From: a bacterium
GTDB lineage: Bacteria > CG03
DNA length: 64,000 bases
Direction: 5' to 3'
NCBI GenBank assembly: GCA_043825615.1
Contig: JBDRRS010000003.1
Coordinates: 125,379-189,378 of the forward strand
Of this stretch, positions 35,097 through 55,320 are shown in pieces. Numbering within the stretch: position 1 is the first letter of the stretch; each line of letters opens with the position of its first letter. Made by a program: the position numbers and the translations under genes. The notes beneath the pieces are model-generated. The model searched no databases, was not told the origin of the DNA, and worked only from the letters and a program-made list of their open reading frames with translations.

Positions 35097-35764
35097 TTTT
35101 TCCCGCTTTTTTCTGCAACCTCTTTTATAATGATGTCCGCAACTTCTTCAATGCTTTTGTTCGTTGAATCTATCACCGTCGCCCCCGCCGGAATTTTCAG
35201 CGGGCAGAGCCCCCTTGTTTTGTCAATGTTGTCTCTTTTGTTTATGTCGGCTATGATGCGCTCTAAAATCTGCGGGTTTCCTTTTTCCTTTAATTCCAGA
35301 AATCTTCTTTTCGCTCGTTCGCTAATGCTGGCGTCGAGATAAAACTTAAATCGGGCGCGAGGGAACACGACCGTTCCGATGTCGCGGCCTTCCATGACCA
35401 CGCCCGATTTTTCCGCAAATTGCCGCTGCATGTCGCGGAGAATCCGGCGGACTTCCCCGCTTGCCGCCGTTATGGAAGTGCGGTTCGTAACGGTTCTCGA
35501 CCTGATTTTGCGGGAGACGTCCTCCCCGTCCAGTAATATTTTCTGTTTATCGAACCGTATTCTGGAACCTGCGGCGATTCCGCACATTTTTTTCGGATCC
35601 GTCATGTCGATTTTATTTTTCAGCGCCTTGTATGTTACCGCCCTGTACATTGCGCCTGTGTCTATATAGGTTAAGCCGAGTTTCTCTGCCACGATGCGGG
35701 CTATCGTGCTCTTCCCCGCCCCCGCCGGCCCGTCTATTGTAATGGGGTCAGGTCTTGCAATCAT
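35093..35764 (-). CDS. cmk: cytidylate kinase (annotated start lies inside REP-like repeat; true start uncertain)
   Basis: ITIDGPAGAGKST P-loop typical of Cmk; first codons ATGATTGCAAGACCTGACCCC coincide with REP core. Confidence 0.85.
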   Translation of the reverse strand: MIARPDPITIDGPAGAGKSTIARIVAEKLGLTYIDTGAMYRAVTYKALKNKIDMTDPKKMCGIAAGSRIRFDKQKILLDGEDVSRKIRSRTVTNRTSITAASGEVRRILRDMQRQFAEKSGVVMEGRDIGTVVFPRARFKFYLDASISERAKRRFLELKEKGNPQILERIIADINKRDNIDKTRGLCPLKIPAGATVIDSTNKSIEEVADIIIKEVAEKSGKK

Positions 35765-36629
35765 ACATTTTCTCTATGCGCCGTAATCTGCGGCTCACTG
35801 TAGCATAATGCACGCCAAGATATTCCGCTATTTCTTTCATACAGTACCTGTATTTTTCATAGGCTTCCACTATGGCATTATCACTGTTCTTTCTCAATAT
35901 CACCCTCAGCGGTTTACGCTTTGGTTCCTGCTGAATCCTCGGTATTTCTTTAATCCTTTCTTTTTTCGATATTTTTTTGATAAATTTATCATCACCGTAA
36001 TATATCTGCCCTTTTAATTTTTCCCATACCGTTTTACCCACTCCCTCTTTAACAAACTTATAATATTTTTCTACCCCTTTTTTTTGATTATTGTCGAACT
36101 GCTTTAATATCCAATCTGTCGTCAGCCAATCCGGGCACTCTTCCAATCCCAGCATTGCCCGATACGCGCTCCATTTCCAATCTTCAACCCTTTTTACTAT
36201 CCCTGCTCGCACTGAATTCAACACTATATATCTGCTTAGTTCCAGTAAATGCTCATTTTTCTGCACAACTATTGCTTTATATCTGCCCTGAAACAAATGC
36301 CCAACACGGCTATGCATCTTGTTAAACCGCTGTGTATACACTCCATTTAACTGCCGCATTCCTCCTGATAAATTACCTTCAGGCGTCTCTACCAATAAAT
36401 GATAATGATTGGTCATCAAATTATATGAATGGCATAACCATTTATAACGCTTTATCGTTTTTTCAAGTATCCGCAGGAACTCTTTACGGTCACTGTCATT
36501 GTAATATATACTCCGCTTTGCGTTACCTCGTGCTGTAATATGGTATATTGCCCCGGGATATTCTATTCTTAGCGGCCTAGCCATATTTCAACTTACCTTT
36601 TATTTTGTTGCATTGCAAGACCTGACCCC
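35744..36629 (-). mobile_element. REP-flanked RAYT unit inserted between aroA and cmk
   Basis: GGGGTCAGGTCTTGCAAT at 35744-35761 and its reverse complement at 36612-36629 bracket the RAYT gene. Confidence 0.7.
35748..36584 (-). CDS. REP-associated tyrosine transposase (IS200-like Y1 HUH transposase family) with C-terminal HTH
   Basis: GAIYHITARGN, HuH motif NHYHLLV, GHLFQGRYK, ELSRYIVLNSVRAG; C-terminal HTH-like IAEYLGVHYATVSRRL. Confidence 0.85.
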   Translation of the reverse strand: MARPLRIEYPGAIYHITARGNAKRSIYYNDSDRKEFLRILEKTIKRYKWLCHSYNLMTNHYHLLVETPEGNLSGGMRQLNGVYTQRFNKMHSRVGHLFQGRYKAIVVQKNEHLLELSRYIVLNSVRAGIVKRVEDWKWSAYRAMLGLEECPDWLTTDWILKQFDNNQKKGVEKYYKFVKEGVGKTVWEKLKGQIYYGDDKFIKKISKKERIKEIPRIQQEPKRKPLRVILRKNSDNAIVEAYEKYRYCMKEIAEYLGVHYATVSRRLRRIEKMYDCKT

Positions 36630-38786: not shown

Positions 38787-38945
38787 CTAAAACAGAGTAT
38801 AAATGAGAGGCGCCAGCGCCGAACCTTCAGTAAAAACGATTAATGCGCTTGTTACTATCAGGAAGATAAATATCGGCACCAGCCACCATTTCTTGCGGGT
38901 TTTCAGGAATTCCAGGTACTCTAATACTGTCGCTAATTTTTTCAT
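38787..38945 (-). CDS. small membrane protein, DUF5989-like (52 aa, not in ORF track)
   Basis: Translated by hand: MKKLATVLEYLEFLKTRKKWWLVPIFIFLIVTSALIVFTEGSALAPLIYTLF; same gene-order context as carbamoyltransferase/SGNH clusters. Confidence 0.5.
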   Translation of the reverse strand: MKKLATVLEYLEFLKTRKKWWLVPIFIFLIVTSALIVFTEGSALAPLIYTLF

Positions 38946-38966
38946 AATATCCTCTTTTGGACCTCT

Positions 38967-40034
38967 TTAAACCGTCGGCTGCAATTTTAGCAAATTTTTC
39001 CTAATCAAGTAACTATATATTCTTTCTCCGACAATAGAATGTCCTGCGCTATTCCAGTGGCAATTGTAGGGCATTCCGTCAACGACAATTCCGGCGGTCT
39101 TCGCTTTTTTTATCAGTTCAGGAATATCGGGTATATAATGTATCTTGCATTTCCTGCAGATATTCGGAAAAGCGTTGCCTAACCATTCGGGCTTAAAGGC
39201 AGAAAAAGCGATTATTGGAGTGCTGCCGGCTCTTTTTTTGACCAATTTCATTATCTCCGAAGTTGTGTTTACCGATTGTTGAAATAACGGGTGTCTTTCA
39301 TGCAGTTCGTCTTCTATTGAACCAATCATTTTTTCTTTTACAATGTGTAATCTGCTTTTAAATAACCGTAAAAAATATGAAAAATGAACTAATTTATGGA
39401 TCCACGTGTAACCTCGACTCTGTTTCGGGTATAAATACTCAATTTGCCCGTCTTTGTAATAAGGTCTTCTCATCTGGTTATTGTTTCTATTACTGGCGGA
39501 TTCAAGAGAGTAATCATTATTAATAATATCATTGCTGCTGAATTGCCATAAAATAATGTCGGGCTTTATTATGTCAAAAAACTTATCCAATATCATGTAT
39601 TCCTGCAGCGAGCCGTAGCCGCCGCATCCGTAGGCGAATATTTCCGTGTCCTTATTTTTCAAAAAATCGTAGTAGGTATTGCCGTCCGAAACAGTATTTG
39701 CCTGTGTAATTGAGTCGCCTATTACAAGTATTTTGGTTTTGGAAGTATTCGTGTCGCCGAAAACGCGGAAACCCCACTTGGTCGTGGTAAATTTTATTTT
39801 CCCGTATCTTTTATATCTCTTTTCCACAGATATGTTTGGAGCAGTTTCCCATCCGAGGTATTTTGAAAAGTTGCTTTCACGGGGAATTGCTTTGCTTTTA
39901 ATTAAATAGAAACTTCTCGTTACACCCTCCAGCAGAAGGATGAATAAAACGAACGTTGTAATTAAAAATATGATTTCACGAACTCTTATTCCGGTAAATA
40001 CTCCCGTTTTTTTAAAATTGTTTTTCATATTCAT
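38967..40034 (-). CDS. SGNH/GDSL-family hydrolase, membrane-anchored
   Basis: ILVIGDSIT motif; N-terminal TM. Confidence 0.6.
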   Translation of the reverse strand: MNMKNNFKKTGVFTGIRVREIIFLITTFVLFILLLEGVTRSFYLIKSKAIPRESNFSKYLGWETAPNISVEKRYKRYGKIKFTTTKWGFRVFGDTNTSKTKILVIGDSITQANTVSDGNTYYDFLKNKDTEIFAYGCGGYGSLQEYMILDKFFDIIKPDIILWQFSSNDIINNDYSLESASNRNNNQMRRPYYKDGQIEYLYPKQSRGYTWIHKLVHFSYFLRLFKSRLHIVKEKMIGSIEDELHERHPLFQQSVNTTSEIMKLVKKRAGSTPIIAFSAFKPEWLGNAFPNICRKCKIHYIPDIPELIKKAKTAGIVVDGMPYNCHWNSAGHSIVGERIYSYLIRKNLLKLQPTV

Positions 40035-40338
40035 TCTTCCCGGAATTATCTATCTTCTTTGGAATCCAGTAACTATCCGCTTTCCTGTCAAATTTTAAAT
40101 CCAAGAATTTTTTCCCGAAGATGCTTGCCGCGAATCTGATAGGCGTAATTATGAGATAAAACAGAATAAACAGAAAAATCTTTGTCGTAAGCCATTTTAT
40201 AATGCCGGCAAAAAACATCCATATTTTATAGACGGGTTTCAGCGTGACGGGTAAAAGCAGGCCGGGTAATAAAAATACTGCGGAAAATGCAAAAAAACAG
40301 CGGTAACAACCTTTCCGCAAGAGGAACAATACGCCCAA
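40012..40338 (-). CDS. hypothetical small membrane protein (SxtJ-like context)
   Basis: 108-aa hydrophobic ORF overlapping the SGNH hydrolase start; gene context only. Confidence 0.4.
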   Translation of the reverse strand: MGVLFLLRKGCYRCFFAFSAVFLLPGLLLPVTLKPVYKIWMFFAGIIKWLTTKIFLFILFYLIITPIRFAASIFGKKFLDLKFDRKADSYWIPKKIDNSGKNEYEKQF

Positions 40339-40443
40339 TAGACCGAGGATAGTACCGATTGTTATACCGAAGTTACGCAGTTCCTTTTTCTCGCTCTTGG
40401 AATTTTCTATCTTTTCAGTAATCGTAAACCTCCTTGAAATACA

Positions 40444-41457
40444 TTATTTTTTTTTCTTTCCGAGCATCGTAAAAAAACCGCCTTCCCTGCCCCCTGTAAA
40501 AAGCAGCCGGCTTTGGATAAGAATGTGTTCAAGCCAATTCCCCCTCGGGTTCGGGTTAAACAGATTCTCGTCTTCCGAAAACGACTTTGGGTTTCTTAAT
40601 TTGGGAATGCTGTTTATAAAATCAAAACCGGTTTGATCGAACCATTTCAGCACTTCGCCGATAGTGTGCTTTGATTCGTGCGGATTTTCATACTGGTCTT
40701 TATACCACGTGAATTTTTTGTGATAACCGATGTTTCTGCTTCTCAAACGCTGGTCTAAAAACTTGAAATGCCCGCCGGAAAACTTGAAAACAGCGCGGCG
40801 GATATCGGTGGTTAACCTGCCGTAACTGTTATAAAGCCCGATAATAATATATCCTCCTTTTTTTACAAGTTTCGATATGGACCGGAAACCGGCAAAAGGG
40901 TCAGCCGTGTGGTGAAGAACGCCGTTACAAATGACAAGAGGAAAACTTTCTTCTTTGAAGATGGGTTTAAACAGGTTCATTTGATAGAATCCCACTCTTT
41001 CAAGATTATTTTCCGCCCTGAAATTGTTGGCTAACCTTAAAGAGTTAAAGCAAATATCAGTCCCGAAGGTGAACCTGTGAGCGACTCCCAGAAAATTGGT
41101 TAGTTGACCCGTGCCGCAGCCGACTTCCAGAACTCTGATATTGAAAGGAACCTGTTTGTTTAACAAACGCGCAAAAATTCCCTTCCGGGCTTTTTGAATA
41201 AGGTCGCCTATGTTTTCAAAATCTTCATAGTTCGGAAACGGCGTTTTTTCATAGAATGCTTTTATTGTATCCGTAATACCGCCTTCTTTATTGTTTTCCC
41301 CGTTTGCCCAAAAAAGAAGGGGAATGCCGTCCTTGATTTGATAACGGTTACGGCAATCCCCGCATTTTATCCCGGTATCGGATATTTTCAGATTTCCTCC
41401 GCATGAAGGGCACATAAAAATCTCCGAATGTTTTTCCATGTGTTTTAACATTATCAC
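40444..41457 (-). CDS. class I SAM-dependent methyltransferase with N-terminal zinc-ribbon
   Basis: CPSCGG...CGDC zinc ribbon; LEVGCGTGQ motif I. Confidence 0.8.
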   Translation of the reverse strand: MIMLKHMEKHSEIFMCPSCGGNLKISDTGIKCGDCRNRYQIKDGIPLLFWANGENNKEGGITDTIKAFYEKTPFPNYEDFENIGDLIQKARKGIFARLLNKQVPFNIRVLEVGCGTGQLTNFLGVAHRFTFGTDICFNSLRLANNFRAENNLERVGFYQMNLFKPIFKEESFPLVICNGVLHHTADPFAGFRSISKLVKKGGYIIIGLYNSYGRLTTDIRRAVFKFSGGHFKFLDQRLRSRNIGYHKKFTWYKDQYENPHESKHTIGEVLKWFDQTGFDFINSIPKLRNPKSFSEDENLFNPNPRGNWLEHILIQSRLLFTGGREGGFFTMLGKKKK

Positions 41458-41462
41458 AACGG

Positions 41463-43298
41463 TTATTGCCTTTCAGCCGCTCCGAACTGCCCGGACCATT
41501 CAACTTCACCTGACAGATTCTGCTCTTTTTTTTCTATCAGATAATTACCCATAATTAAGAAATCCATATTTGTTCGCATAAAGCACTTATAAGCGTCTTC
41601 CGGTTTGCATACAATGGGTTCTCCGCGGACGTTGAAAGAAGTGTTAATGATTACGGGACAGCCGTATTTCTCGTTGAATTTTTCTATCAGGCGGTAATAT
41701 AAAGGGTTATCGTTCCTGTCAACGGTTTGAAGACGAGCCGTGTAATCTACATGAGTAACCGCCGGAATACTTGAACGTACAATTTTCAATTTATCAAGAC
41801 CGAAGAGTTTCTGTTCTTCGCCTGACATCTCCCGGCAAATTTCTTTTTTTACCGGCGCCACCAAAAGCATATAGGGGCTTTCCGTTTTCGTTTCAAAATA
41901 ATCAGAGGCTTTTTCTTTCATTACGGAAGGCGCAAAAGGACGAAAACTTTCTCTGAATTTTATTTTCAAGTTTATTGTCTCCTGCATTTTGACAGAACGG
42001 GCATCTCCCAAAATTGAGCGGTTTCCCAATGCGCGCGGGCCGAATTCCATACGTCCCTGAAACCAGCCGATTACGTTTTGCCCGGCGATTAAATCGGCTA
42101 TTTTCTCCGGAATTTCTTCATCCGTTAGCAGCGTGTAAGGAATATGGCGCTCTTCAAGATAGTTTTTAATATAATCATTTTTGAACTCCGGACCGAGGTA
42201 AGAGCCCTGTTGAAAATCCTTTTTCCCGTCGGCGATTCTCTTTTTCTCCAGGTATTGATACCAGACAAACAAAGAGGCGCCCAACGCTCCGCCGGCATCT
42301 CCCGCTGCCGGCTGTATCCAGATATTTTCAAAAGGTCCTTCCCGCAGAATTTTCCCGTTAGCGACGCAATTCAAAGCCACACCCCCCGCCAGACAGAGAT
42401 TTTTGTGTCCGGTTTCTTTATGGATGTGCCGCGCCATGCGCAACATAATTTCTTCGGTTACTTCCTGCACGGAGCGGGCTAAATCCATATCTTTTTGCGT
42501 TATTTGCGATTCCGGTTTTCTCGGAGGGCCGCCGAACATTCTCTCGAATTTTTTGGTAATCATTTTTAATCCGACGGGATAATCAAAATATTTCATATTC
42601 ATCCTGAAAGAGCCGTCTTTTTTTAAGTCCAGCAACTCGGAAAGAATCAAATCCTTATATTTCGGCTCGCCGTAAGGAGCCAGACCCATCACTTTATATT
42701 CGTCCGAATTTACTTTAAATCCCGTGTAATATGTAAACGCCGAATAAAGCAATCCGAGAGAATGGGGAAAATCAATCTCGGACAGAATGCGTATCCCGTT
42801 GTCCTTGCCTGTGCCGTAACTCGTCGTCGCCCATTCGCCGACCGCATCCGTCGTGAGAAAAGCCGCTTCCTGGAAAGGCGAAGGAAAAAAGGCGGCTGCG
42901 GCATGCGACTCATGATGTTCGGGGAAAATAATTTTGCCGTCAAAGCCTGTTTCCTCTGCTATGAATTCCTTCATCCAGATTTTTTGTTTTATCCATAAAG
43001 GCATGGATTTAAGAAACGAGCGGATGCCAAGAGGCGCATAATTCAGATGGGTCTCTAATATACGCTCGAACTTGAGAAAAGGTTTTTCGTAAAATGCCAC
43101 AAAATTCAGGTCTTTGGATTTTAAACCCTTACTCTGTAAACAGAAATTTATTGCATTTTTCGGGAAGGAAAAATCGTGTTTTTTTCGGGTAAACCTTTCT
43201 TCCTGGGCGGCTGCTGCTAATTTGCCGTCCTGAACCAGACAGGCGGCGCTGTCATGATAAAATGCCGATATTCCCAGAATATTCACAGATTCTCCCAT
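41463..43298 (-). CDS. carbamoyltransferase (NodU/CmcH family)
   Basis: N-terminal ILGISAFYHDSAA and overall length typical of the family. Confidence 0.85.
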   Translation of the reverse strand: MGESVNILGISAFYHDSAACLVQDGKLAAAAQEERFTRKKHDFSFPKNAINFCLQSKGLKSKDLNFVAFYEKPFLKFERILETHLNYAPLGIRSFLKSMPLWIKQKIWMKEFIAEETGFDGKIIFPEHHESHAAAAFFPSPFQEAAFLTTDAVGEWATTSYGTGKDNGIRILSEIDFPHSLGLLYSAFTYYTGFKVNSDEYKVMGLAPYGEPKYKDLILSELLDLKKDGSFRMNMKYFDYPVGLKMITKKFERMFGGPPRKPESQITQKDMDLARSVQEVTEEIMLRMARHIHKETGHKNLCLAGGVALNCVANGKILREGPFENIWIQPAAGDAGGALGASLFVWYQYLEKKRIADGKKDFQQGSYLGPEFKNDYIKNYLEERHIPYTLLTDEEIPEKIADLIAGQNVIGWFQGRMEFGPRALGNRSILGDARSVKMQETINLKIKFRESFRPFAPSVMKEKASDYFETKTESPYMLLVAPVKKEICREMSGEEQKLFGLDKLKIVRSSIPAVTHVDYTARLQTVDRNDNPLYYRLIEKFNEKYGCPVIINTSFNVRGEPIVCKPEDAYKCFMRTNMDFLIMGNYLIEKKEQNLSGEVEWSGQFGAAERQ

Positions 43299-43417
43299 TA
43301 TAAAAAATTGCTTGGTTTCGTCATTGCCTGTTAATATTACTATAAAACTTCTTTTGCTGTCAATAAAATTGACGAATGCCGGAATTTTTAATAAAATCAG
43401 CAGATTAAGGAGGGGTC

Positions 43418-44434
43418 GTGAAAATAGCGGTTGTCGGCGCGGGCTACTGGGGAAAGAATTTAATACGGAATATGTATCAGCTGGGCGCTCTTGCCGCTGT
43501 TTGTGATGTTGACGGGACAGGTCTGGAGAAAATTAAAAGAACTTTCCCCGGAATAGAGGCGGAAACCGATTTGTCTTCGGTTCTGAACAATCCGGAAATT
43601 AAAGCGGTGGTCATTGCCACTCCCGCCTCTACGCATTATGCCGTAGCGAAACAGTGCCTTTCCGCGGGAAAACACGTTCTTGTTGAAAAGCCGTTCACTC
43701 TTTCTTTAAAAGAAGCAGACGAACTTATTTCCATTGCCCGCGGGAAAAAACTCGTTCTGATGGTCGGGATGACATTTATTTATAACGCCGCCGTCCGGAA
43801 AGTGAAGGAATTGATTCAGTCGGGCGCTCTGGGAGATATTTACTATGTTTATTTTGAGCGGGTGAACCTCGGAAAAGTCAGGACCGACGTAAACGTGTGG
43901 TGGAACCTCGCTCCCCACGACATCTCAATTGCTCTTTACTGGCTTGATTCAAAAATTGACAATTTAACGGCCCGCGGCGCCTGCTATCTGCAGAAAGACA
44001 TAGAGGACGTCGCATGGGCGAACATAAAGTTCAAAAACGGCGCCTGCGTGCTTATCCACACTTCATGGCTTCACCCCCATAAGACGAGAAAGGCGATTGT
44101 CGTCGGCTCAAAGAAAATGGCCGTCTATGACGAGATTTCATCCGATATGAAAATTCAGATTTACGATAAGGGAATAGACAAAAAGGACATATCAAAACGT
44201 CTGGGTGAATACGAGAATTTCGGACAGTTTCAGCTCATCCAGCGCGCGGGGGACATTTACATCCCGAAAATAAATTTCACCGAACCGCTTTTAGAAGAAT
44301 GTTCTCATTTTATCGACTGTATAAAAACAAACAAACGTCCGCGGACGGACGGCGCCTGGAGCCGTGAGATTGTAAAGGTTCTGGAAGCGGGCCAGAAATC
44401 AATGAAGAAAAACGGCAGACTTGTCAAGCTGTGA
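43418..44434 (+). CDS. Gfo/Idh/MocA-family oxidoreductase (WbpB-like UDP-sugar 3-dehydrogenase)
   Basis: [13 protein letters not shown] Rossmann; EKP motif. Confidence 0.8.
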
Positions 44435-45045
44435 ATTACAAAATCTGCAGAAATGTTAAAATCGGAAAAAATTCCGAGGTCGGTGATTTTTCCATAATAG
44501 GACTCCCTGAAAAATCAAAATCCGCCAAAACGGTTATCGGCGACAACGCGACAATCCGCTCTCACACGGTCATTTATGCCGGTAACCTCATCGGGAAGAA
44601 TTTTAATACCGGTCATATGGTGATGATAAGGGAATCGAACAGAATAGGCGATAACGTAAGCATCGGCACGGGCTCCTGCGTTGAACACCATGTCAAAATC
44701 GGCAACGGCGTCCGTCTGCACTCAAATGTTTTTGTGCCGGAATACACGACGCTGGAGGACGGCTGCTGGGTGGGGCCGAATGTTGTTTTTACCAATGCGC
44801 GGTATCCCAAAAGCAAAAACGTAAAAAAGCGGTTAAAAGGAGCGCTGGTAATGAAAGGGGCCAAAATCGGCGCGAACGCGACCGTTCTTCCGGAAGCGGT
44901 CATCGGCAGGAATGCCCTCGTCGGCGCGGGTTCCGTCGTAACAAAAGATGTCCCTGACAATAAGGTCGTTGCGGGCAACCCCGCGAAAGTGATAAACGAC
45001 ATAAGAAAAATTTCCGTTTATGGAAAGAAAAATTTCCCTGGTTGA
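44431..45045 (+). CDS. hexapeptide-repeat N-acetyltransferase (WbpD-like)
   Basis: Left-handed beta-helix hexapeptide repeats throughout. Confidence 0.8.
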
Positions 45046-46135
45046 TTTGGCCGCGCAGTACCGGCTGATAAAAAGCGAGATAGACGAAGCGGTCAGCCGC
45101 GTCCTGACGAATACCAATTTTATAATGGGGAAGGAAGTAACCGATTTTGAATTGAATTTCGCCGGATTCTGCGGTGTTAAGTTCGCCATCGGCGTCGGCA
45201 ACGGGACGGACGCCCTGTATATTGCGCTCCGCGCGCTTGGAATAGGGGCGGGCGACGAGGTCATCACGGCTCCGAACACGTTTATCGCCACGACGGAGGC
45301 GATATCAATGACGGGAGCCAGACCCGTTTTTGCCGACGTGGAGGAAAACAGTTTTACGATTGACGCGGATATGATTGAAAATGCAGTCACCTCCAGAACA
45401 AAGGCAATCATACCCGTTCACCTTTACGGGCGTATCTGCGATATGGAAAAAATAAAAGCGATTGCGCAAAAGCGCGGTTTGAAAATAATTGAGGATGCCG
45501 CCCAGGCGCACGGCGCGGAGCTCGGAGGAATTAAAGCGGGCTCTTTTTCGGATGCCGGTTGCTTCAGTTTTTATCCGGGAAAGAACCTCGGCGCAGCGGG
45601 CGATGCGGGCGCCGTTGTTACCAGCGACGAGAAACTTGCCGGTAAGATAAGAATGTTAAGAAATCACGGCCGGCAGAAAAAATACATTCACGAATTTGAA
45701 GGGGTAAACAGCCGGCTGGACACAATTCAGGCGGCTGTCCTGAACGTCAAACTGAAACACCTTTCTGAGTGGGTGAAAAAAAGAAACGAGAAGGCGGAAA
45801 TCTACCGGGAATTGCTTGGCGGGTGCAAAGGAATTAAACTTCCCGGGATTCCGCCCTGCGGTATCCACGCGTGGCATCTTTTTGTTATCCGGTGCGCGTT
45901 CAGGGATAAGTTAAAGAGTCAACTTGAAATCGAAAACATTTCCTGCGGAATTCACTACCCTGTTCCCCTTCACCTCCAGCCCGCGTACAGCCGGCTGGAT
46001 TATAAGGAAGGCGATTTCCCTGTCGCCGAGCGTCAGGCAAAAGAAATCCTTTCGCTTCCTATTTATCCCGAATTACAGGGTGACGACCAGAGAAGAATTT
46101 GCGAGGTGATAAAAAAAACCTGCAGGGAGAACTGA
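45020..46135 (+). CDS. DegT/DnrJ/EryC1/StrS-family sugar aminotransferase (WbpE-like)
   Basis: Family-typical motifs incl. GNGTDAL, putative PLP lysine in SFYPGKNLG. Confidence 0.85.
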
Positions 46136-47080
46136 ATGTATAAAGAAAAAAAGATTGCCCTTGTGATTCCGGCGCGCAACGAAGAGGTCTTGATAATACC
46201 GACGCTAAAAGGCGTGCCGGAACTTATTGATAAGGTCTTTGTGGTTGACGACGGCAGCTCTGACAAAACGGCGGAACTGGTCGGTGAATACGCGGGAAAA
46301 GATAAAAGGGTCGTACTGCTGCGGCACGGAAAAAATTCGGGTGTCGGGTCGGCGCTGATTACGGGATACAGGAAGTCGGCGGAAGAGGGCTACGATATCT
46401 CCGTGGTAGTCGGAGGCGATAACCAGATGCCGCTGGATAATGTCACGGATTTTCTTGACCCGCTGATTGCGGGCGCGGCGGATTATACGAAGGGTAACCG
46501 GTTTCTCGTCGAGGAAAATGTTTTTGACGATATGCCGTCTCTCCGCCTGATAGGAAATTCCGTAATTTCCTTAATCACTAAAATTGCTTCGGGTTATTAT
46601 AAGATTTTTGACTTCGTCGAGGGTTATACCGCAATTACAAAGAAAGCGATTGAGACAATTAACTGGGACAAGGCGTGGAAGGGCTACGGTTACCCGATGG
46701 ATTTTTTAATCCGGTTGAACGCATATGGTTTCAAGGTAAAGGATATTCCCCGCCGGGCAATATATCTCCCCGGAGAGAAACAGACCCAGATCAAGGGGCT
46801 GCCTTACGCAATAAGGGTAACGCCGATGCTTGTGCGGGGTTTTCTGTGGAGAATTGCGAAAAAATATGTGTTCAGGGATTTTCATCCTCTCGTATTATTT
46901 TACTTCGGAGGAATAATAATGCTGCCTGTCGGAGTGCTGTTCGGCATATATCTTTTACATCAGCAAATAGCGGGTTTCGGAGTTTCCGGACCCCGTGCGA
47001 TATTATGCGCGCTTTTAATTATGGCAGGTTTACAGTTTCTCTTTTTCGCGATGCTATTTGATATGCAGCAGAGTGATTAA
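46136..47080 (+). CDS. glycosyltransferase family 2 (polyprenyl-phosphate glycosyltransferase-like) with C-terminal TM helices
   Basis: IPARNEE, VVDDGSSD, DGD-like motifs. Confidence 0.8.
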   Translation: MYKEKKIALVIPARNEEVLIIPTLKGVPELIDKVFVVDDGSSDKTAELVGEYAGKDKRVVLLRHGKNSGVGSALITGYRKSAEEGYDISVVVGGDNQMPLDNVTDFLDPLIAGAADYTKGNRFLVEENVFDDMPSLRLIGNSVISLITKIASGYYKIFDFVEGYTAITKKAIETINWDKAWKGYGYPMDFLIRLNAYGFKVKDIPRRAIYLPGEKQTQIKGLPYAIRVTPMLVRGFLWRIAKKYVFRDFHPLVLFYFGGIIMLPVGVLFGIYLLHQQIAGFGVSGPRAILCALLIMAGLQFLFFAMLFDMQQSD

Positions 47081-48824
47081 AAATTTCAAATTTCTTTGCG
47101 TTCTTGCGGTATTGCTCACGTTTTCAGGATGCGCTGAGCGGAAAGAAGTTGCCGATATTCTGCTTATTTATAATTCAAAAAAAGAACAGACCTCCGATGT
47201 CAATTTCCGCAAAATTTCCGAATATTACGGTCTGCTCTGCGGCAAAACTGATTTATCCGAAACGGCGCTAACGGAAGATTTATTCGGGAATATCACAACC
47301 GCCGGCATAAACGGGGCGAATCTTGAAAGATTAAAACCGGATGAGTTGTCTCTTCTCAAAAGTAAAATAAGCGCCGGAGGAATGAAATTAATCGTTCTCA
47401 TGCAAGAATCGGCTGAATACAAAAATCTTAAAAAATTAACAGGTAATGAAGTTCAGGGCGTTGCGGAGGCGGCCCAAACCGGTCATTACAGCGTTTCGGC
47501 ACGCTTTCCCCTGATAACACGGGAGTTTACAGGCCATGAACTAAATTATCCGGATATGGAACGTATTCCCTGCATAAATGTAAATAAGAATGCAGTGAGC
47601 GCGTTCCCTTTAATAGCGGCCGGCGACGGTCAGGCGGTGTTTATTTACCATAAATCAGGGAAAGGAGAAATATTTTTTATTGCCGGTAAGGAATGCCCGA
47701 ACCTTGAAGAGAATCAGATGTATAAAATTTATTGCAGCACTGAAAGTTTTTACAACTTGCTCCCGGCAATGACGGCAATACGCTACTCTATGGGAAACAG
47801 ATGCTGGCGCAACGAGCGGAACTATGCAAATCTGACAATAGACGACCCTCCCCTGCGTCAGACAACCCGTCCGAAGGACTGGATGGGTCTGGATTATTTC
47901 GGCTTGCTTAAAGAATTAAAAAAACATAATTACCACATAACAATTGCTCTTATTCCCGGCTGGATGAAGTTTACCGAAAAAAGCGTGGTCGACCTCTTTC
48001 TGCAGAACCCCGACAGGTTCTCCATAGTTCAGCACGGCAACAATCATGACGGCTATGAATTCTGGCACTATGACCCTCAACCCGGCGACTCCCGCCCGCC
48101 AAAACCATACCGCGACCAGGACGAAGACCTTGCCGAAGGTATGCAGAGAATGAACGGTTTTTCAAAAGTTACAGGAATTCCCTGGGGACGACTCATAATT
48201 TTTCCCGGCGGAATCTGTCCGTTAAGAACATTTAAACTGCTGAAAAAATACAACTTTCTCTGTACTGTAAACTACCAAAGAGAACCTCTCGGGGAGAAAC
48301 CCGCAGACACCTACGACTATCAAATGTATCCCGCCGAAATGAGTTTCGGTTCTTTCCCGTCCGTGCGCAGAGAACATCCGGGACTGCACTTCCCTGTTTT
48401 GAACTTTATTCTGTTTAGTATGTTTATTGATACGCCGTTCCTGATTTATGACCACGCATGGGATTTTAAGGAAGGCGCTAAAACGTATAATTTACTGGCG
48501 GATGAAGTTAACAGAGTTACCGGCGGCGTAGAATGGCGGAGTTTGGGAGAAATCGCCGAACATCTGTATCTTGAGAGAGAACGAGCAGACGGAGTCATAG
48601 AAGTAAAGATGTTCAGCAACGGAATTGTTCTGGAAAATAAATACGAAGTTCAAAAAAAATACAGGATAACCAAAAGAGAAAACTTTGATGTGCCTGTTAA
48701 GTGTGTCAGGGTAGATAACGCAAAAGTAAAATATAAGAAAAAGGAAGATTACATTTGCGTAACTACGGTCATTGATGCTCATTCGGAAAAGAAAATCAGG
48801 ATTGAATATAAAGGACCGAAATGA
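47058..48824 (+). CDS. hypothetical lipoprotein, possibly polysaccharide-deacetylase-like
   Basis: Lipobox LTFSGC; LTIDDPP and HGNNHD weakly resemble NodB-type motifs. Confidence 0.35.
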   Translation: MICSRVIKNFKFLCVLAVLLTFSGCAERKEVADILLIYNSKKEQTSDVNFRKISEYYGLLCGKTDLSETALTEDLFGNITTAGINGANLERLKPDELSLLKSKISAGGMKLIVLMQESAEYKNLKKLTGNEVQGVAEAAQTGHYSVSARFPLITREFTGHELNYPDMERIPCINVNKNAVSAFPLIAAGDGQAVFIYHKSGKGEIFFIAGKECPNLEENQMYKIYCSTESFYNLLPAMTAIRYSMGNRCWRNERNYANLTIDDPPLRQTTRPKDWMGLDYFGLLKELKKHNYHITIALIPGWMKFTEKSVVDLFLQNPDRFSIVQHGNNHDGYEFWHYDPQPGDSRPPKPYRDQDEDLAEGMQRMNGFSKVTGIPWGRLIIFPGGICPLRTFKLLKKYNFLCTVNYQREPLGEKPADTYDYQMYPAEMSFGSFPSVRREHPGLHFPVLNFILFSMFIDTPFLIYDHAWDFKEGAKTYNLLADEVNRVTGGVEWRSLGEIAEHLYLERERADGVIEVKMFSNGIVLENKYEVQKKYRITKRENFDVPVKCVRVDNAKVKYKKKEDYICVTTVIDAHSEKKIRIEYKGPK

Positions 48825-49858
48825 GAATATTGGTGGATATTCTGCACCCGGCGCATGTTCATTTTTTCAAAAATGCAATTCGGGAATGGGAAAAAAGGGG
48901 ACATCAGGTTTTGACGACAGCACGGGATAAAGATGTAACGCTTAATTTGCTTAAAGCGTATAATATTGATTTTACGGAGATCAGCAAAATAGGAAAAGGG
49001 ATATTCGGACTCGCGGGAGAACTGGTCTTACGGAATTGCCGGCTGATTAAAATAGTAAAAAATTTCAGCCCGGATATTATGTTCGGAGTAGCGGGAGTTT
49101 CTATTGCGCCCGTCGGTAAGATTACGGGAATACCGTCTGTTGTTTTCACCAATAACGAACATGCCGCATTATCCAATAAAATCACATTTCCCTTTGCGGA
49201 TGTAGTATGTACTGCATCATGTTTTAAGAAAAATTTCGGAAAAAAGCATGTATGGTTTAATGGATATCACGAGTTGGCTTATCTTCACCCCGATTATTTT
49301 AAGCCGGACGAATCCGTTTTGAGGGAATTAAACCTTACAGTGACGGATAAATTCGTTATTTTCAGATTTGTTTCATGGGGCGCGGCTCATGACATCGGGG
49401 AAAAATGGCTTTCCCTTCAGGAGAAGCGCAAATTAATAAAAAGCGCAGAAAAATATGCCAGGGTGTTCATTACTTCGGAGTCGCGGCTGCCCCCTGATTT
49501 AATGAGATATCATATATCTATTTCTCCGGAGAAAATGCATTCTCTGTTGAGTTTTGCCCGCCTGCACATCGGAGAAAGCGCAACAATGGCTTCGGAAAGC
49601 GCGGTGTTAGGTGTGCCTGCTATCTTTGTTTATTCTTCCCCCCGGGGATATACCGACGAAATCAGGGATAAATATGAACTGTTATTTACATTTTCCAGTA
49701 AAAACCATAATTGGAGAAAAATTGAGAATAAATTGATAGAATTACTGGAGGACGAAAATATGAAGGAAAAATGGCAAATGAAAAGAAATAAAATGCTGGC
49801 AGAAAAAACTGATGTCACTAAATTTATCGTAGGGCTGGCGGAGAAATATTGTGGTTAA
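48821..49858 (+). CDS. DUF354-family protein (GT-B-like)
   Basis: N-terminal MRILVDILHPAHVHFFKNAI matches DUF354 signature as recalled. Confidence 0.65.
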   Translation: MRILVDILHPAHVHFFKNAIREWEKRGHQVLTTARDKDVTLNLLKAYNIDFTEISKIGKGIFGLAGELVLRNCRLIKIVKNFSPDIMFGVAGVSIAPVGKITGIPSVVFTNNEHAALSNKITFPFADVVCTASCFKKNFGKKHVWFNGYHELAYLHPDYFKPDESVLRELNLTVTDKFVIFRFVSWGAAHDIGEKWLSLQEKRKLIKSAEKYARVFITSESRLPPDLMRYHISISPEKMHSLLSFARLHIGESATMASESAVLGVPAIFVYSSPRGYTDEIRDKYELLFTFSSKNHNWRKIENKLIELLEDENMKEKWQMKRNKMLAEKTDVTKFIVGLAEKYCG

Positions 49859-50648
49859 ATCATCCGAAGCCCATATAAATTACGATAGGCAATGGTTTAT
49901 CGTGGTTAAAAAAATGCATGAATTACGTCCCCCTGCCGTAGAGTTGCGTGATGAGTTAATCCTAAAGTTGTTTCCTCTAAAAGGAAATAATCTTACCTGT
50001 CTTGACGTGGGATGCGGATACGGAAAATATACTTTGGAACTTTTAAAGAGAGGATTTTCCGTCCATGCTTTTGACGGTTCTGAAGATGCCGTCAAAAAGT
50101 TAAAAGAAAGTGTCCCTGAAGATTCTTCCGGCAGGCTGACCGCGCAGGCGGCAACCATTGAGAATTTTACATCAACTGCCCGGTATGATTTTATTCTGGT
50201 ATCGGAAGTGCTGGAGCACATTAAAGATGATTGCGGCGCTGTAAAAAAATTATTTTCTTTGCTGAAAGAAGACGGAAGAATGATTATCTCGGTCCCGCAT
50301 GATATGAAGTTATGGACAGTGACGGATACTTTTGTCGGGCACCTTCGCCGATATAGCAAAGAGTCGCTTATAAAAATTTTACCCTCGGGAAAAATAAAAA
50401 TTGAAAAAATGTGGTGTTACGGATTCCCCTTCCTGTGGATGGTACGTCTGTTGCGAAAAATCTTCTGTATGGGCCCTGAATACATTGTTGCAAAGACAAC
50501 AAAACCGACTTTTTATGGAACGTTGCTGAAAATTTGCACATGGATATTAGGGAGATTACTCTTTTTTGACAGGTTGTTTTTGAATGTATTCACGGGTATA
50601 GGGCTGATAACTGTGATTGTAAAGCATAATGGGATTAATAAAGATTAA
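49851..50648 (+). CDS. class I SAM-dependent methyltransferase
   Basis: LDVGCGYGKYT motif I. Confidence 0.75.
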   Translation: MVKSSEAHINYDRQWFIVVKKMHELRPPAVELRDELILKLFPLKGNNLTCLDVGCGYGKYTLELLKRGFSVHAFDGSEDAVKKLKESVPEDSSGRLTAQAATIENFTSTARYDFILVSEVLEHIKDDCGAVKKLFSLLKEDGRMIISVPHDMKLWTVTDTFVGHLRRYSKESLIKILPSGKIKIEKMWCYGFPFLWMVRLLRKIFCMGPEYIVAKTTKPTFYGTLLKICTWILGRLLFFDRLFLNVFTGIGLITVIVKHNGINKD

Positions 50649-50651
50649 GAA

Positions 50652-51869
50652 ATGAATTTTACAGGCAATATCAAAAGTCAGCTGTTTAAAGAAAGTATTT
50701 CCGGTGTGCTAAAATATTCCGAGGCCGGTAATTATGCGGGTTATTCGAAATTTGACGCTTTAAATTCACCTTTGCTGTGGAAAATTTTCGGGAGCAGTTC
50801 TATTTACCGATTTATAATTATTCAAATGGTCAACAGAATCCCGTTTCATATACGCCCGCTTTTGGGCGTTAAAAAACTGCGCAACCCCAAAGGAATAGCG
50901 AATTTTATAAAAGCGTACTGCGCTCTTTATAAGATAGAATCTTTGCCGGAATACTTGAATAAAATAAGAGAATTGTCGGATTGGCTTTTGAAAAACAACT
51001 CCAACAAAAATAACAGATATCATGGAGTTTGCTGGGGGTATAATTTTCCGTGGCAGAACCCGGGATTTTATGCGCCAAGATATTTTCCGAATTGTATTGT
51101 AACTTCGTTTGCCGGAGATGCGCTGCTTTACGCTTATGAGTTAACCGGAGATATTAAATATATGAAAACCGCGGAAAGCGCCGCAACTTTTATTTTAAAA
51201 GACCTTCCCGTTATGGAAGAAACCGGGGATGGGAAGTGCATAGGCTACGTTCCGGCAAAATTGCGCTGGAAGGTTATAAATATTAATTCGGTGGCTGCCG
51301 GTTTTTTATCCCATTTATTTGCCGTTTCAGGCGAAGAAAAATATATTGATGAAGCAAGACGTTTAACTAATTGGGTGATTTCCAAAAAAAAAGAGGGCGA
51401 TGTATGGTCTTATACATATCCGGAATCTTCTTCAGGAATAATGCCTGACAACTACCACACCGGCGGAATATTAGACGGTATTTTTGATTACATGGTTAAC
51501 AGCAAGGACCACACATATATGGAAACTTATATGAGAGGTTTGAATTTTTATAAAAGGAGATTTTTTAAATCTGACGGCGCTCCGAAACTGTTTGATAAAA
51601 AAGAGTTTCCTTACGATATTCACAGTGTTGCACAGGGAATAATTACATTTGTTAAAGCGGGTAAATTTGATTCGGATTATATGGATTTTGCAAAGAATAT
51701 AGCCGCATGGGGCATCAGGAATATGCAGGATGCAAGCGGACATTTTTACTATAGGAAATATAAATTTTATACCCTGAAATATGATTTAATGCGCTGGAAC
51801 AATTCATGGATGACCTGGGCTCTGGCGGAACTGTTGCTGCAATTATTTAAGGGGACGAATGAAAAATAA
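50652..51869 (+). CDS. hypothetical protein (405 aa)
   Basis: ORF in track within glycan locus; no motif recognised. Confidence 0.4.
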   Translation: MNFTGNIKSQLFKESISGVLKYSEAGNYAGYSKFDALNSPLLWKIFGSSSIYRFIIIQMVNRIPFHIRPLLGVKKLRNPKGIANFIKAYCALYKIESLPEYLNKIRELSDWLLKNNSNKNNRYHGVCWGYNFPWQNPGFYAPRYFPNCIVTSFAGDALLYAYELTGDIKYMKTAESAATFILKDLPVMEETGDGKCIGYVPAKLRWKVININSVAAGFLSHLFAVSGEEKYIDEARRLTNWVISKKKEGDVWSYTYPESSSGIMPDNYHTGGILDGIFDYMVNSKDHTYMETYMRGLNFYKRRFFKSDGAPKLFDKKEFPYDIHSVAQGIITFVKAGKFDSDYMDFAKNIAAWGIRNMQDASGHFYYRKYKFYTLKYDLMRWNNSWMTWALAELLLQLFKGTNEK

Positions 51870-53343
51870 AAAAATTATTCTGATTTTCTGCGGTGCAAAA
51901 GGAAAAGGCGTTCGGTTACCACTGGCTGTTCTTGTTCTGGCACGGCCTTTAATTGACGCTGGATTTGGCGTTGAACTTTTTGATCTCCGGGTGGAGAAAT
52001 TTTTTTTAAAAAATCCGAAGGATGTTTTATTGATGGGCGTAAGTGCATGGACAGGAAAACACAGCATCCCGCAGGCGATTGAAGTTTCCAGGAAAATAAA
52101 AAAAATAAATCCGGAAATACCTATTGTCTGGGGCGGCCCTCACGCTACTTCATTGCCGGAAGAAACGGCCAACAACAAATACATAGACATTGTTGTAAGA
52201 GGTGCGGGTGAAGAATGCCTGTTGGAGCTGGCGAATAAAATTTATCGGAACAAAGACATTTCAGGCGTTAAAGGGATAACCTATAAGAAAAATGGTCAGG
52301 TCATTTCCACGCAGGACAGGGACATTCCTAATATTAATAAAATCACTCACCTGCCGTACGATTTGCTGAAACTGTCCAGATATCCGGCGCTGCGGTATAA
52401 CTTTGATTATCTTTCCAGCGTGGGTTGTCCTCACAGATGCATGTTTTGTTCCGAACCGTTTTTTTCCAAAAGAAAGTGGAATGCAAAGGACAATGAGGTG
52501 ATGGCTGCCGAATTGGATTACATAGTCAAAAAATTCAATCCTGAACGCATTGTAATAAATGATTCCAATTTTTTCGTAAACAAAAACCGCGTTTTGAAAT
52601 TTTGCCGGAATAAGATTGAACGGGGGTACAAATTTAAAATACATGCTGAGTGCAGAATTGATTATTTTTCGAAATACGATTCCGAAACGCTGTTGCTTTT
52701 GCACCGAGCCGGTTTTTCTGAAATTCTGTTCGGCGGGGAATCAGGTTCGGATAGGACATTGCAATTTATCAAAAAAGATATAACGTCGGAACAAATTCTG
52801 AAAAGCGTAAAAAAAACAAAAGATTTTGATATTACGCCGGTTATCAGTTTTATGATTGGTTTTCCCGAAGAAAATCAGAAACATCGCTTAAAAACAATTG
52901 AAATTTATGACAGAATTATGAAAATTAATCCTAAAGCACGGATAAACGGAATCCGTGTTCTGACTCCTTTCCCCTGCACGGGTTTGTATGATTATGTGAA
53001 GGAAAAACATCATTTCCATCCGCCTGAAACACTTGAAGAATGGGGCAAATACACACTGTATGAAACGAATTATGCCACATGGTTGAGCAAGAAGGAATTG
53101 GACATTATTAAAAATATATCAATAGTGGCAAGATATTTTTATGTGTTTAAACTCCTTAAATCGTGGTCATTGCGGGAACTCGTCGCAAGACACCACTCGC
53201 TTTTACGGGGGGTTGCTTCCGTATTTTTCAACCATCTTTTTTATCTGCCCGCAGTTTTCAGGTGGAAATTGCGTTACTTCAATAATGCCGTGGAATTCCA
53301 TTTGTGGAACAGAATTTTGCAGGCATTTACGGGTAAAAAATAA
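51859..53343 (+). CDS. B12-binding domain radical SAM protein
   Basis: CPHRCMFC (Cx3Cx2C) cluster motif preceded by a B12-binding-like N-terminal domain. Confidence 0.8.
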   Translation: MKNKKIILIFCGAKGKGVRLPLAVLVLARPLIDAGFGVELFDLRVEKFFLKNPKDVLLMGVSAWTGKHSIPQAIEVSRKIKKINPEIPIVWGGPHATSLPEETANNKYIDIVVRGAGEECLLELANKIYRNKDISGVKGITYKKNGQVISTQDRDIPNINKITHLPYDLLKLSRYPALRYNFDYLSSVGCPHRCMFCSEPFFSKRKWNAKDNEVMAAELDYIVKKFNPERIVINDSNFFVNKNRVLKFCRNKIERGYKFKIHAECRIDYFSKYDSETLLLLHRAGFSEILFGGESGSDRTLQFIKKDITSEQILKSVKKTKDFDITPVISFMIGFPEENQKHRLKTIEIYDRIMKINPKARINGIRVLTPFPCTGLYDYVKEKHHFHPPETLEEWGKYTLYETNYATWLSKKELDIIKNISIVARYFYVFKLLKSWSLRELVARHHSLLRGVASVFFNHLFYLPAVFRWKLRYFNNAVEFHLWNRILQAFTGKK

Positions 53344-53442
53344 GATATGATGTGTTAATGATTAATATTAGGTAGAAGGATTTTTACTGGATACCCCCGG
53401 AAACCTATTTTGTATTGCTCTGTTATGAGAGGGGGTGCCGTT

Positions 53443-54642
53443 ATGCAGAAAAAAATGAATCTTTTATTCGTGGGTACTGTTAGAGGCGCTGATCCGCCTA
53501 ACCGCATCAATGCTCTTATAAAAATGGGTTATGATGTTTCTATACTCAACATAGATAGAGAATTTTTTTCATATAATACAATAAAAGAGCTTACTGGACT
53601 GAAATCTGTTACAAACTTGTTCTACGAGAAAAAACTTTATTCTGCTATGAAATCTAAAATGGCAGAAGCAGCAAAAATGCTGTTAAGTACATTTCATCTG
53701 TATGAAAATAAGGAAGTTAAAGCGAAGGTGAAAGAAGTTATACTCAAGAATAAGATAAATATGGTGTATTGCCACTGGGGAGTAACTGTTGTTCCGCTAA
53801 TAGCCTTGATTAAAAACGAGTTTCCAAATCTGCCAGTTATCCATGAGATACTGACTTATCCTTCTTCGGTAAATCCATTAGAGATTGCTTTTCAGAATTT
53901 TTTCTACGGGAGGGTGGTAAAAAAGATCGACGGCAGGATACATTGCAGCCGGCGGATGTATGATTATTTGAACTCCCGGTTTAATTTAAAACAACGGGGA
54001 AAAGATTTAATTCAGCCATTATACTTTAACAGGCGTTATTTTTATAAAAAAAGGCTGCCAGCGTTATCGGAGAAAGATAACGTTCCTCATATTATATTTA
54101 TTGGTATTGGAAGAGAGAACTTCTCTAAAAAAAGACCGTCTGATGATATTAGAAAAAAAATTCAGGAAATAACCAAATTGCAAATACATTTCTGGATTAG
54201 TTCAAAAAACAAAAATATAGAGGAAAGCGATTACGTGCATTTCTACCCATGGCTTAACTCTTTTGAAGTAGCCAACGGTTCCATGGCGACTTTTATGACT
54301 CAATTCGACGCTTGCATCTATTTACACAATTTAAAGAAAAATTATGCAATGTATGAAAACAGTTTACAGACAAGATTCCGATTTGCTCTCACGGCGGGTA
54401 TACCGATAGTCATGCCTATCGGGTATTACGGAGCTTGTCAGGATATTGTTGAAAAATACAAGATTGGATTTGCTTATAAAGATGTCGGGGAACTCAAAGC
54501 AAAATTATCCGATAGAGAACTTATGGCGGAATACCGGAAAAATGCCGTCAGGGCCTCGCCGGAGTTTACTTTTGAAAACAACTTTGAAAAATTGGACAAA
54601 TTTGTTAAAGAAATAATATATCCGGAATCGCATGCTGTCTAA
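53443..54642 (+). CDS. hypothetical protein, possibly GT-B-fold glycosyltransferase (start moved to MQKKMNLLF)
   Basis: ORF 53410-54642 in track; C-terminal region weakly GT-B-like. Confidence 0.35.
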   Translation: MQKKMNLLFVGTVRGADPPNRINALIKMGYDVSILNIDREFFSYNTIKELTGLKSVTNLFYEKKLYSAMKSKMAEAAKMLLSTFHLYENKEVKAKVKEVILKNKINMVYCHWGVTVVPLIALIKNEFPNLPVIHEILTYPSSVNPLEIAFQNFFYGRVVKKIDGRIHCSRRMYDYLNSRFNLKQRGKDLIQPLYFNRRYFYKKRLPALSEKDNVPHIIFIGIGRENFSKKRPSDDIRKKIQEITKLQIHFWISSKNKNIEESDYVHFYPWLNSFEVANGSMATFMTQFDACIYLHNLKKNYAMYENSLQTRFRFALTAGIPIVMPIGYYGACQDIVEKYKIGFAYKDVGELKAKLSDRELMAEYRKNAVRASPEFTFENNFEKLDKFVKEIIYPESHAV

Positions 54643-55291: not shown

Positions 55292-55320
55292 AATGTATCA
55301 AGCGGATAAAGTATAAAACC

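Follow-up and report, generated by a model that had tools for sequence, protein, structure and literature searches.

One of the closest known counterparts of the gene set described here lies in the saxitoxin clusters of cyanobacteria, where the carbamoyltransferase gene sxtI (1839 bp) is contiguous with sxtJ (405 bp), sxtK (165 bp) and sxtL, the last encoding a GDSL lipase. Ever since that cluster was described, SxtJ and SxtK have been carried as hypothetical proteins thought to work with SxtI; the literature assumes that the three act together, and SxtL has been given a decarbamoylase role without experiment. What are probably the same four families, in nearly equal sizes (611, 136, 52 and 355 amino acids for the SxtI-, SxtJ-, SxtK- and SxtL-type proteins, respectively), are encoded together with a methyltransferase (MT) in a minus-strand cluster of a CG03 bacterium (GenBank assembly GCA_043825615.1, contig JBDRRS010000003.1, positions 125,379 to 189,378; these 64,000 nucleotides are the window of this study). 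An initial interpretation made from the letters of this DNA, referred to here as the sequence-only reading, missed the SxtI/SxtJ/SxtK/SxtL-type identity of the gene set. We propose that the five genes make up a module for O-carbamoylation, SxtI/J/K/L-type and tethered to the membrane, which runs a carbamoyl relay to an envelope glycan, and would assign this reading a probability of roughly 0.4. The association of carbamoyltransferases with sxtJ- and sxtK-like genes is already known, the cassette itself being known but uncharacterised. The apparent novelty is that four things come together: an acyl-shuttle ending on DUF5989, natural fusions of the carbamoyltransferase (CT) to SxtJ, a linkage between the SGNH protein and the microprotein, and a lack of any MBOAT.

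The second comparison is with the acyl shuttles of the cell envelope. DltX is a 49-residue membrane microprotein ending in NQAKFIYNEF, with an FXYXXF hexapeptide at its extracellular C-terminus, and its invariant Tyr takes D-alanine from DltB, an MBOAT protein, and passes it to DltD, an SGNH protein anchored in the membrane, whose catalytic Ser receives it (PMC12148441, PMC13653941). PatA-type MBOATs bear the same hexapeptide (FIYANF) on their own C-terminus, and acetyl is passed to the SGNH protein PatB (PMC12148441, PMC13653941). The window resembles these systems in three respects: the extreme C-terminal FXYXXF with an invariant Tyr (FIYNEF in DltX, FIYANF in PatA, FIYTLF in the family consensus here), a single-pass microprotein of about 50 residues with a predicted N-in/C-out orientation like that of DltX, and an SGNH-fold partner with an N-terminal membrane anchor and catalytic Ser/His. 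It differs in that there is no MBOAT, carrier protein or acyl-CoA donor, only a cytoplasmic CT tethered to SxtJ, and carbamoyl would be transferred in place of acetyl or D-alanyl. The possibility that the neighbourhoods conceal an MBOAT or AT3 was considered and rejected, as none was found in the window or among the recurrent neighbours of the 80 loci surveyed below. Therefore, the CT is the only candidate donor enzyme and, for the same reason, we do not file DUF5989 as a member of an acyl-shuttle system but suggest only that it may work like one. The claim is one of shared motif, architecture and type of partner, not of family membership.

The DUF5989 microprotein, which the sequence-only reading had recognised as a 52-residue DUF5989-like membrane protein, matches the Pfam family at 73.6 bits and is 98% identical in a sister metagenome-assembled genome (MAG), L082. 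Contrary to that reading, the open reading frame (ORF) is not unannotated: NCBI holds it as MFH1957012.1, 'DUF5989 family protein', and the Logan gene caller also called it. From its size and position we infer that DUF5989 is the SxtK family. Across phyla the microprotein keeps 45-67% identity. Fifty distinct homologues taken from the loci share a basic N-terminus (RKKWW), one transmembrane helix and the ending GSA[LV]APFIY[TAS][LI]F-COOH. The C-terminus fits [FL][IV]Y[TAS][LIFM]F in 49 of these 50 and exact FxYxxF in 46, while an alignment of 30 sequences has K18, W21, P24, A45, P46, Y49 and F52 as invariant residues. A search of 1.84 billion representative proteins returned 2,258 clusters, which shows the small ORF to be very strongly conserved. 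Among the best 150 of these clusters, 127 end in exact FxYxxF and 131 in a hexapeptide of the FxYxxF type, and most of the exceptions carry the motif followed by apparent read-through. The ending is rare elsewhere: 47 of 20,152 ORFs in the same loci have it, essentially all of them DUF5989 genes, which leaves roughly 1-2 per 20,000 outside the family. The segment before the helix has 6.5 Lys/Arg residues and that after it 0.1; by the positive-inside rule, an N-in/C-out topology is predicted, with the FIYxxF tail on the outer face of the membrane.

To evaluate co-conservation, one genome per GTDB species was scanned, giving more than 600 CT matches, and the best 80 loci, from more than 15 phyla including groups of the candidate phyla radiation (CPR), were analysed. 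Neighbourhoods were built by iterative hidden Markov model (HMM) searches on all stop-to-stop ORFs, and counts were made on the 73 loci in which 1 kb or more of sequence follows the CT. SxtJ directly follows the CT in 65 of the 73, and is fused, upstream or weakly matching in three more; the microprotein is found in about 45 and an SGNH homologue within 6 kb in 30. The SGNH gene accompanies the microprotein, being present in 25 of 40 DUF5989-positive and 3 of 22 DUF5989-negative loci (Fisher p = 4e-4, with each locus from a different species and phylogeny uncorrected, which lessens the weight of the value in favour of a relay). It usually lies directly after the microprotein, between SxtJ and the microprotein, or directly upstream of the CT. 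The order SxtJ-SGNH-SxtK recurs in the window, L082, L039 and Candidatus Brocadia. The Brocadia MAG (GCA_030409075.1; L083 4091-10563) reads SxtJ' fragment, SGNH1, SxtK' pseudogene, CT, an inserted DUF2281/PIN toxin-antitoxin pair, SxtJ, SGNH2 and SxtK, where the upstream SGNH1 is intact and SxtK' has an in-frame stop and a motif degraded to SIYAMF. The SxtJ-SGNH-SxtK segment has here been duplicated as a unit, one copy of which then decayed.

Unbiased clustering of the neighbouring genes gave no other family in more than about seven loci. The recurrent neighbours are GDP-mannose dehydratase, UDP-glucose dehydrogenase, DegT aminotransferase, GT9 glycosyltransferase, B12-radical SAM enzymes and methyltransferases. 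The recurrent gene association claimed by the sequence-only reading holds for the CT, SxtJ, the microprotein and the SGNH protein, but not for the MT, whose adjacency is confined to this lineage and one Nitrospirae MAG: the zinc-ribbon MT stands between CT and SxtJ only in the window and L082, and after SxtK in the Nitrospirae MAG (L020). Few of the 73 loci have any methyltransferase nearby. The MT was rejected as a core component because it is not co-conserved; it is a lineage-specific addition, probably methylating the same glycan.

The MT also favours a reading in which the genes are neighbours by chance or operon shuffling, with no shared function, and FIYxxF is a coincidence of a hydrophobic tail; the downstream tyrA and aroA, unrelated housekeeping genes apparently transcribed in the same direction, fit it as well. 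We regard such a reading as highly improbable, since the order CT-SxtJ-microprotein is kept across more than 15 phyla with genes sometimes fused, the genes overlap or are tightly spaced, and the frequency of FxYxxF endings outside the family is as low as given above. For the CT, SxtJ and the microprotein it is effectively refuted by the neighbourhood and fusion data.

The CT was assigned to the NodU/CmcH carbamoyltransferases, and the MT to the zinc-ribbon methyltransferases dependent on S-adenosylmethionine (SAM), already by the sequence-only reading, and Pfam upholds both identities. Carbam_trans_N matches the CT with E 8e-101 (338 bits) and Carbam_trans_C with E 3e-76 (255 bits). The protein aligns over its full length to the solved O-carbamoyltransferases 7XB6, NovN, GdmN and TobZ (E 1e-99 to 1e-76; residues 10-591 for TobZ, GdmN and NovN), and comprises an N-terminal Kae1-like and a C-terminal YrdC-like domain. 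Its translation contains PEHHESHAA, the His-rich metal site, and EFGPRALGNRS in the YrdC-like domain; GPRALGRS is cited in the literature as the catalytic motif of SxtI. Judged by its domains, alignments and conserved motifs, the CT is predicted to be a catalytically intact TobZ-type enzyme. Its close homologues number in the thousands, the best non-self matches being 605-residue proteins of 77-81% identity from Brocadia/Planctomycetota, Nitrospinota, Thermodesulfobacteriota, Omnitrophota and Elusimicrobiota. TobZ, NovN, GdmN and NodU have the same two-domain architecture with conserved metal-binding and GPRALG motifs, but they are soluble enzymes whose direct substrates are small molecules or Nod factors, and we know of no SxtJ or SxtK partners for them. 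The clade of the window CT differs in two ways: its identity across phyla is unusually high (58-81%), and it is tethered to the membrane, by fusion in some lineages. Two loci (L018 3076-4890, L078 6142-7941) have, a few kb upstream of the main CT, a second CT paralogue that is far more divergent and scores about 200-230 bits against the CT profile.

Recurrent natural fusions and near-universal adjacency, both read from sequence, show that SxtJ keeps the CT at the membrane. At least 36 clusters contain CT::SxtJ fusions, and these diverge to 62% identity. The SxtJ protein of the window has 3-4 helices, a predicted cytoplasmic N-terminus and a K/R-rich C-terminal tail ending in EYEKQF; its AlphaFold2 (AF2) model has a predicted local distance difference test score (pLDDT) of 77, with helices up to residue 102 and a disordered tail. 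By analogy only, SxtJ resembles small lipid-carrier flippases in size and topology. In-frame fusions of 735-774 residues (L052 9995-12214, P0121-P0155, P0212) are common in Pyrinomonadaceae/Acidobacteriota, and their SxtJ tail ends in RFERLF, not the usual YERQF. The C-terminal Tyr of SxtJ (YE[RK]QF) was considered as a cytoplasmic carbamoyl acceptor and rejected, because it is only about 60-70% conserved and is replaced by Phe in the fusions.

The start of SxtJ required correction. The sequence-only reading called the gene a 108-residue membrane protein, and three gene callers gave three lengths (68, 108 and 122 residues); the gene stands as a member of the SxtJ family, but the protein is most likely 136 residues long, starting at a non-canonical ATT 28 codons upstream. 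Homologues begin M-[LI]-x-E-E-I-K-x-I-K-S-x-K-K-E-L-R-K-F-G, and the window retains this N-terminus in frame (ITEKIENSKSEKKELRNFG), including a conserved KELRNFG, with ACG-ATT where the homologues have ATG. A strong AGGAGG box lies 6 nt before the ATT (40422). The sister MAG L082, an independent assembly whose CT is 95% identical, has the identical junction TAA-TGT-ATT-TCA-AGGAGG-TTT-ACG-ATT and TTA where the window has TTG (40338). Only with the ATT-initiated form does the Pfam SxtJ match (PF19588; 28.5 bits, cut-off 24.4) cover profile positions 1-95. Because the junction is identical in the sister MAG while TTG has become TTA, and because the profile match runs from position 1, we place SxtJ at 40012-40422; the TTG start (108 residues) was rejected on the homologue N-termini, the TTA codon and the profile coverage. 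Between 40420 and 40446 on the minus strand, SxtJ is in the frame of the upstream MT, whose TAA stop lies seven codons before the ATT.

The SGNH protein gives a weak match to the GDSL/SGNH families in Pfam. It has the SGNH fold with blocks I (GDS), II (G), III (ND) and V (H), and S108 (in GDS), D169, N173 and H326 are invariant in the subfamily alignment. Its AF2 model (pLDDT 93.9) has a transmembrane helix at residues 18-49, a small beta module and the SGNH core, and 33 of 40 homologues have an N-terminal hydrophobic anchor. We propose that it is an extracytoplasmic (carbamoyl)transferase or esterase. The sequence-only reading had made it a deacylase, which was an assumption; the C-terminal FIYxxF of the microprotein points instead to a partnership for acyl (carbamoyl) transfer like that of DltX and DltD. 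The subfamily is small (158 proteins at E <= 1e-5, with identity down to 36%) and is only 9-25% identical between loci. Between the sister MAGs it is the fastest-evolving member, at 87.7% identity against 93-98% for the other four genes. A donor side that stays invariant while the SGNH protein diverges would fit a constant CT substrate and variable final acceptors.

Two Ignavibacteria MAGs (L019 2252-8276, L023 1994-7847) carry tandem arrays of 4-6 SGNH paralogues, some of about 630 residues, upstream of the CT on the opposite strand, and these may be several acceptor-specific enzymes with one donor module. Close SGNH homologues are also found in MAGs labelled as Asgard archaea (P0411 and P0433, Hodarchaeota and Promethearchaeota; L085 6001-10527), the contig of P0433 having CT-SxtJ as well; these could reflect horizontal transfer or a binning error.

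The relay that we propose would run as follows. TobZ-type enzymes make carbamoyl-adenylate from carbamoyl phosphate and ATP, and the cytoplasmic CT would do the same here while SxtJ holds it at the membrane. The carbamoyl group would then reach the invariant Tyr of the DUF5989/SxtK microprotein on the outer face of the membrane, for which passage through SxtJ and a flipped, lipid-linked carbamoyl intermediate are equally conceivable. As an analogy to DltX-DltD and PatA-PatB suggests, the SGNH protein would accept the group on its catalytic Ser and hand it to a hydroxyl of an envelope glycan. Aryl carbamates are suited to carbamoylating a serine nucleophile, as is seen with the carbamate inhibitors of serine hydrolases. 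That DUF5989/SxtK proteins are carbamoyl-carrying counterparts of DltX, loaded by the CT with SxtJ and independently of an MBOAT or AT3, with the SGNH protein passing carbamoyl to envelope polymers, is a tentative conclusion in which we place less than even confidence. In the literature searched there was no paper on DUF5989 and none linking carbamoyltransferases to acyl shuttles.

Several observations weigh against the relay. The CT is cytoplasmic and the Tyr is predicted to be outside, and SxtJ, for which no recognisable fold relative was found, is small and has no demonstrated channel or catalytic residue. The window copy of the microprotein ends in LIYTLF, a minor variant in which the first Phe of the family consensus APFIYTLF is replaced by Leu. 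In HMMER searches, 30 DUF5989 members gave no match to Pfam DltX at E <= 10 and the window copy none in NCBIfam at E <= 0.1, so the resemblance to DltX lies in motif and architecture, and convergence or coincidence could account for it; the PDB, queried with SxtK and with a DltX sequence, returned nothing usable. In about one third of the loci neither a microprotein gene nor an SGNH gene adjoins CT-SxtJ, and CT-SxtJ may therefore work without them. From the SGNH side, of four diverse homologues examined, one adjoins CT-SxtJ; the other three have no CT within 6 kb and are located in glycan loci or at the end of a contig. Fold searches rank generic esterases and CgnD above PatB and OatA, and the fold thus leaves a transferase role unsupported.

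Much of this would be expected if tailoring took place on the cytoplasmic face, with the CT directly O-carbamoylating a glycan linked to undecaprenyl diphosphate before the Wzx flip. SxtJ and the microprotein would then be structural or regulatory, anchoring and orienting the CT, FIYxxF would be a docking or stability element, and the SGNH protein would be an independent extracytoplasmic esterase editing O-acyl or carbamoyl groups, as proposed for SxtL. No membrane-crossing step is required, and the characterised relatives TobZ, GdmN, NovN and NodU all carbamoylate the final substrate directly. The loci with only CT-SxtJ, the occurrence of the SGNH subfamily also without a CT, the mostly esterase fold neighbours, and the decarbamoylase role assigned to SxtL in the saxitoxin literature point the same way. 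We consider this explanation a serious possibility, held with something short of even odds. It leaves unexplained, however, why an invariant Tyr sits in an exact C-terminal FXYXXF on the side of the membrane opposite to the CT, why the SGNH gene tracks the microprotein, and why SxtJ-SGNH-SxtK behaves as a unit.

The setting of the cluster bears on the nature of the acceptor. The divergent plus-strand locus at 43418-59026 is a Wzx-type glycan cluster that encodes a UDP-GlcNAc 3-dehydrogenase-like protein, a NeuD/PglB-type N-acetyltransferase, a DegT aminotransferase, a GT2 glycosyltransferase, a DUF354 protein, a methyltransferase, a B12-radical SAM enzyme, a Polysacc_synt flippase and a PMT_2 GT-C glycosyltransferase. 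Three further ORFs of the locus (47058-48824, 53410-54642 and 54632-55291; 588, 410 and 219 residues) have no significant Pfam or NCBIfam match. A lipid- or glycan-tailoring pathway had been suggested by the sequence-only reading as carbamoylation, methylation and deacylation; a glycan or envelope substrate is plausible, as the module is repeatedly found in glycan and nucleotide-sugar loci, while the MT lies outside the conserved set and deacylation was an assumption. A B12-binding radical SAM gene recurs next to or near the CT module in unrelated lineages (window 51859-53343, L025 13517-14977, L085 10547-11971), and its product may be a C-methylase acting on the same glycan.

Compared with the saxitoxin cassette, the cluster has a glycan locus and aroA/tyrA as flanks, none of the sxt core genes (such as sxtA, sxtG and sxtB), an inserted MT and the order CT-MT-SxtJ-SGNH-microprotein. 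Because of these flanks, we conclude that the cluster is a non-toxin form of the SxtI/J/K/L-type cassette, and presumably the ancestral form. The alternative, that the module carbamoylates and the MT methylates a diffusible natural product, as in saxitoxin or crocagin biosynthesis, draws on the presence of the same cassette in the saxitoxin clusters and on the closest solved structure to the SGNH protein, CgnD (PDB 8A2N; 13% identity), from the crocagin cluster, which like the window has a carbamoyltransferase (CgnI) and a methyltransferase (CgnL). We find it unlikely, because the window lacks core biosynthetic genes (polyketide synthase, non-ribosomal peptide synthetase, precursor of a peptide made on the ribosome and then modified post-translationally, sxtA/G-like), the module is flanked by a Wzx-type glycan locus and by aromatic amino-acid housekeeping genes, the recurrent neighbours across phyla are nucleotide-sugar and glycosyltransferase genes, and the module occurs in small-genome CPR bacteria and Omnitrophota.

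CgnD is reported to be a leader peptidase that works unusually slowly and whose Ser is a poor nucleophile, and its gene lies in the precursor-peptide operon. The pair CgnD-CgnI was considered as independent support for an SGNH-CT partnership and was kept only as a lead, since crocagin-like clusters without a CT exist and the connection to a CT there may be a coincidence; given the shuttle idea, a fresh look at the true role of CgnD might be worthwhile.

If the carbamoyl relay is correct, the module would constitute a previously unrecognised, phylum-spanning route of extracytoplasmic O-carbamoylation, in which carbamoyl is a new acyl group and the loading machine for envelope-polymer modification outside the cytoplasm is independent of MBOATs, and in saxitoxin biosynthesis SxtJ, SxtK and SxtL would be reassigned to new roles. 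If it is not, the cluster still exemplifies, usefully and within clear limits, a widespread module built on a membrane-tethered carbamoyltransferase. Thousands of uncultured lineages carry the module, among them anammox bacteria, Omnitrophota, CPR bacteria, Acidobacteriota and Ignavibacteria. The acyl-shuttle ending of DUF5989 and the CT::SxtJ fusions make the question of SxtJ and SxtK function experimentally approachable.

Positions of the cluster genes and of an upstream promoter-like site in the window
Feature	Position	Strand	Basis
O-carbamoyltransferase (CT; SxtI/NodU/TobZ type), 611 aa, cytoplasmic	41463..43298	-	Pfam Carbam_trans_N + Carbam_trans_C
SAM-dependent methyltransferase (MT), N-terminal Trm112p-like zinc ribbon, <=337 aa, lineage-specific accessory	40444..41457	-	Pfam
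SxtJ-family small membrane protein, 136 aa, probable ATT start	40012..40422	-	Pfam SxtJ PF19588, homologue N-termini
SGNH/GDSL-fold protein, 355 aa, N-terminal transmembrane anchor + small beta module + SGNH core	38967..40034	-	
DUF5989 (inferred SxtK-type) microprotein, 52 aa, one transmembrane helix, tail LIYTLF-COOH	38787..38945	-	Pfam DUF5989
Sigma-70-like promoter match upstream of CT	43334..43363	-	TTGACA-18-TAATAT, 10/12 matches; consensus match only, weak

The five consecutive minus-strand genes reported by the sequence-only reading are all in the ORF list at the positions given there. SxtJ and the SGNH gene overlap by 23 nt, the 3' end of the former running into the start of the latter, and the microprotein starts 21 nt past the SGNH stop and is preceded by an AAGAGGA box. 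Within the five-gene cluster, the minus strand showed no terminator-like site. This tight arrangement is consistent with a single operon. The promoter-like site sits in the 119-bp divergent intergenic region common to the CT and the glycan locus. The MT matches Methyltransf_11/31/23/12/25 (class I SAM) together with the Trm112p-like zinc ribbon; public gene callers gave it 323 and 331 residues, and its real start is probably ATG 41439 (331 aa) or ATG 41415 (323 aa).

Elsewhere in the window, an IS200/REP-type Y1 transposase gene (PF01797) lies at 35748-36584 on the minus strand, between aroA and cmk and in the transcription direction of the cluster. The segment 1-10300 has a low G+C content (about 31%, versus about 46% elsewhere) and encodes a type III restriction-modification pair (Mod 2754-4751, Res 4754-7528) alongside a NOV_C-domain protein. 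It also contains several ORFs without a family match, and probably represents a defence island gained by horizontal transfer. It is followed by an ADP-ribosylglycohydrolase gene at 10567-11346.

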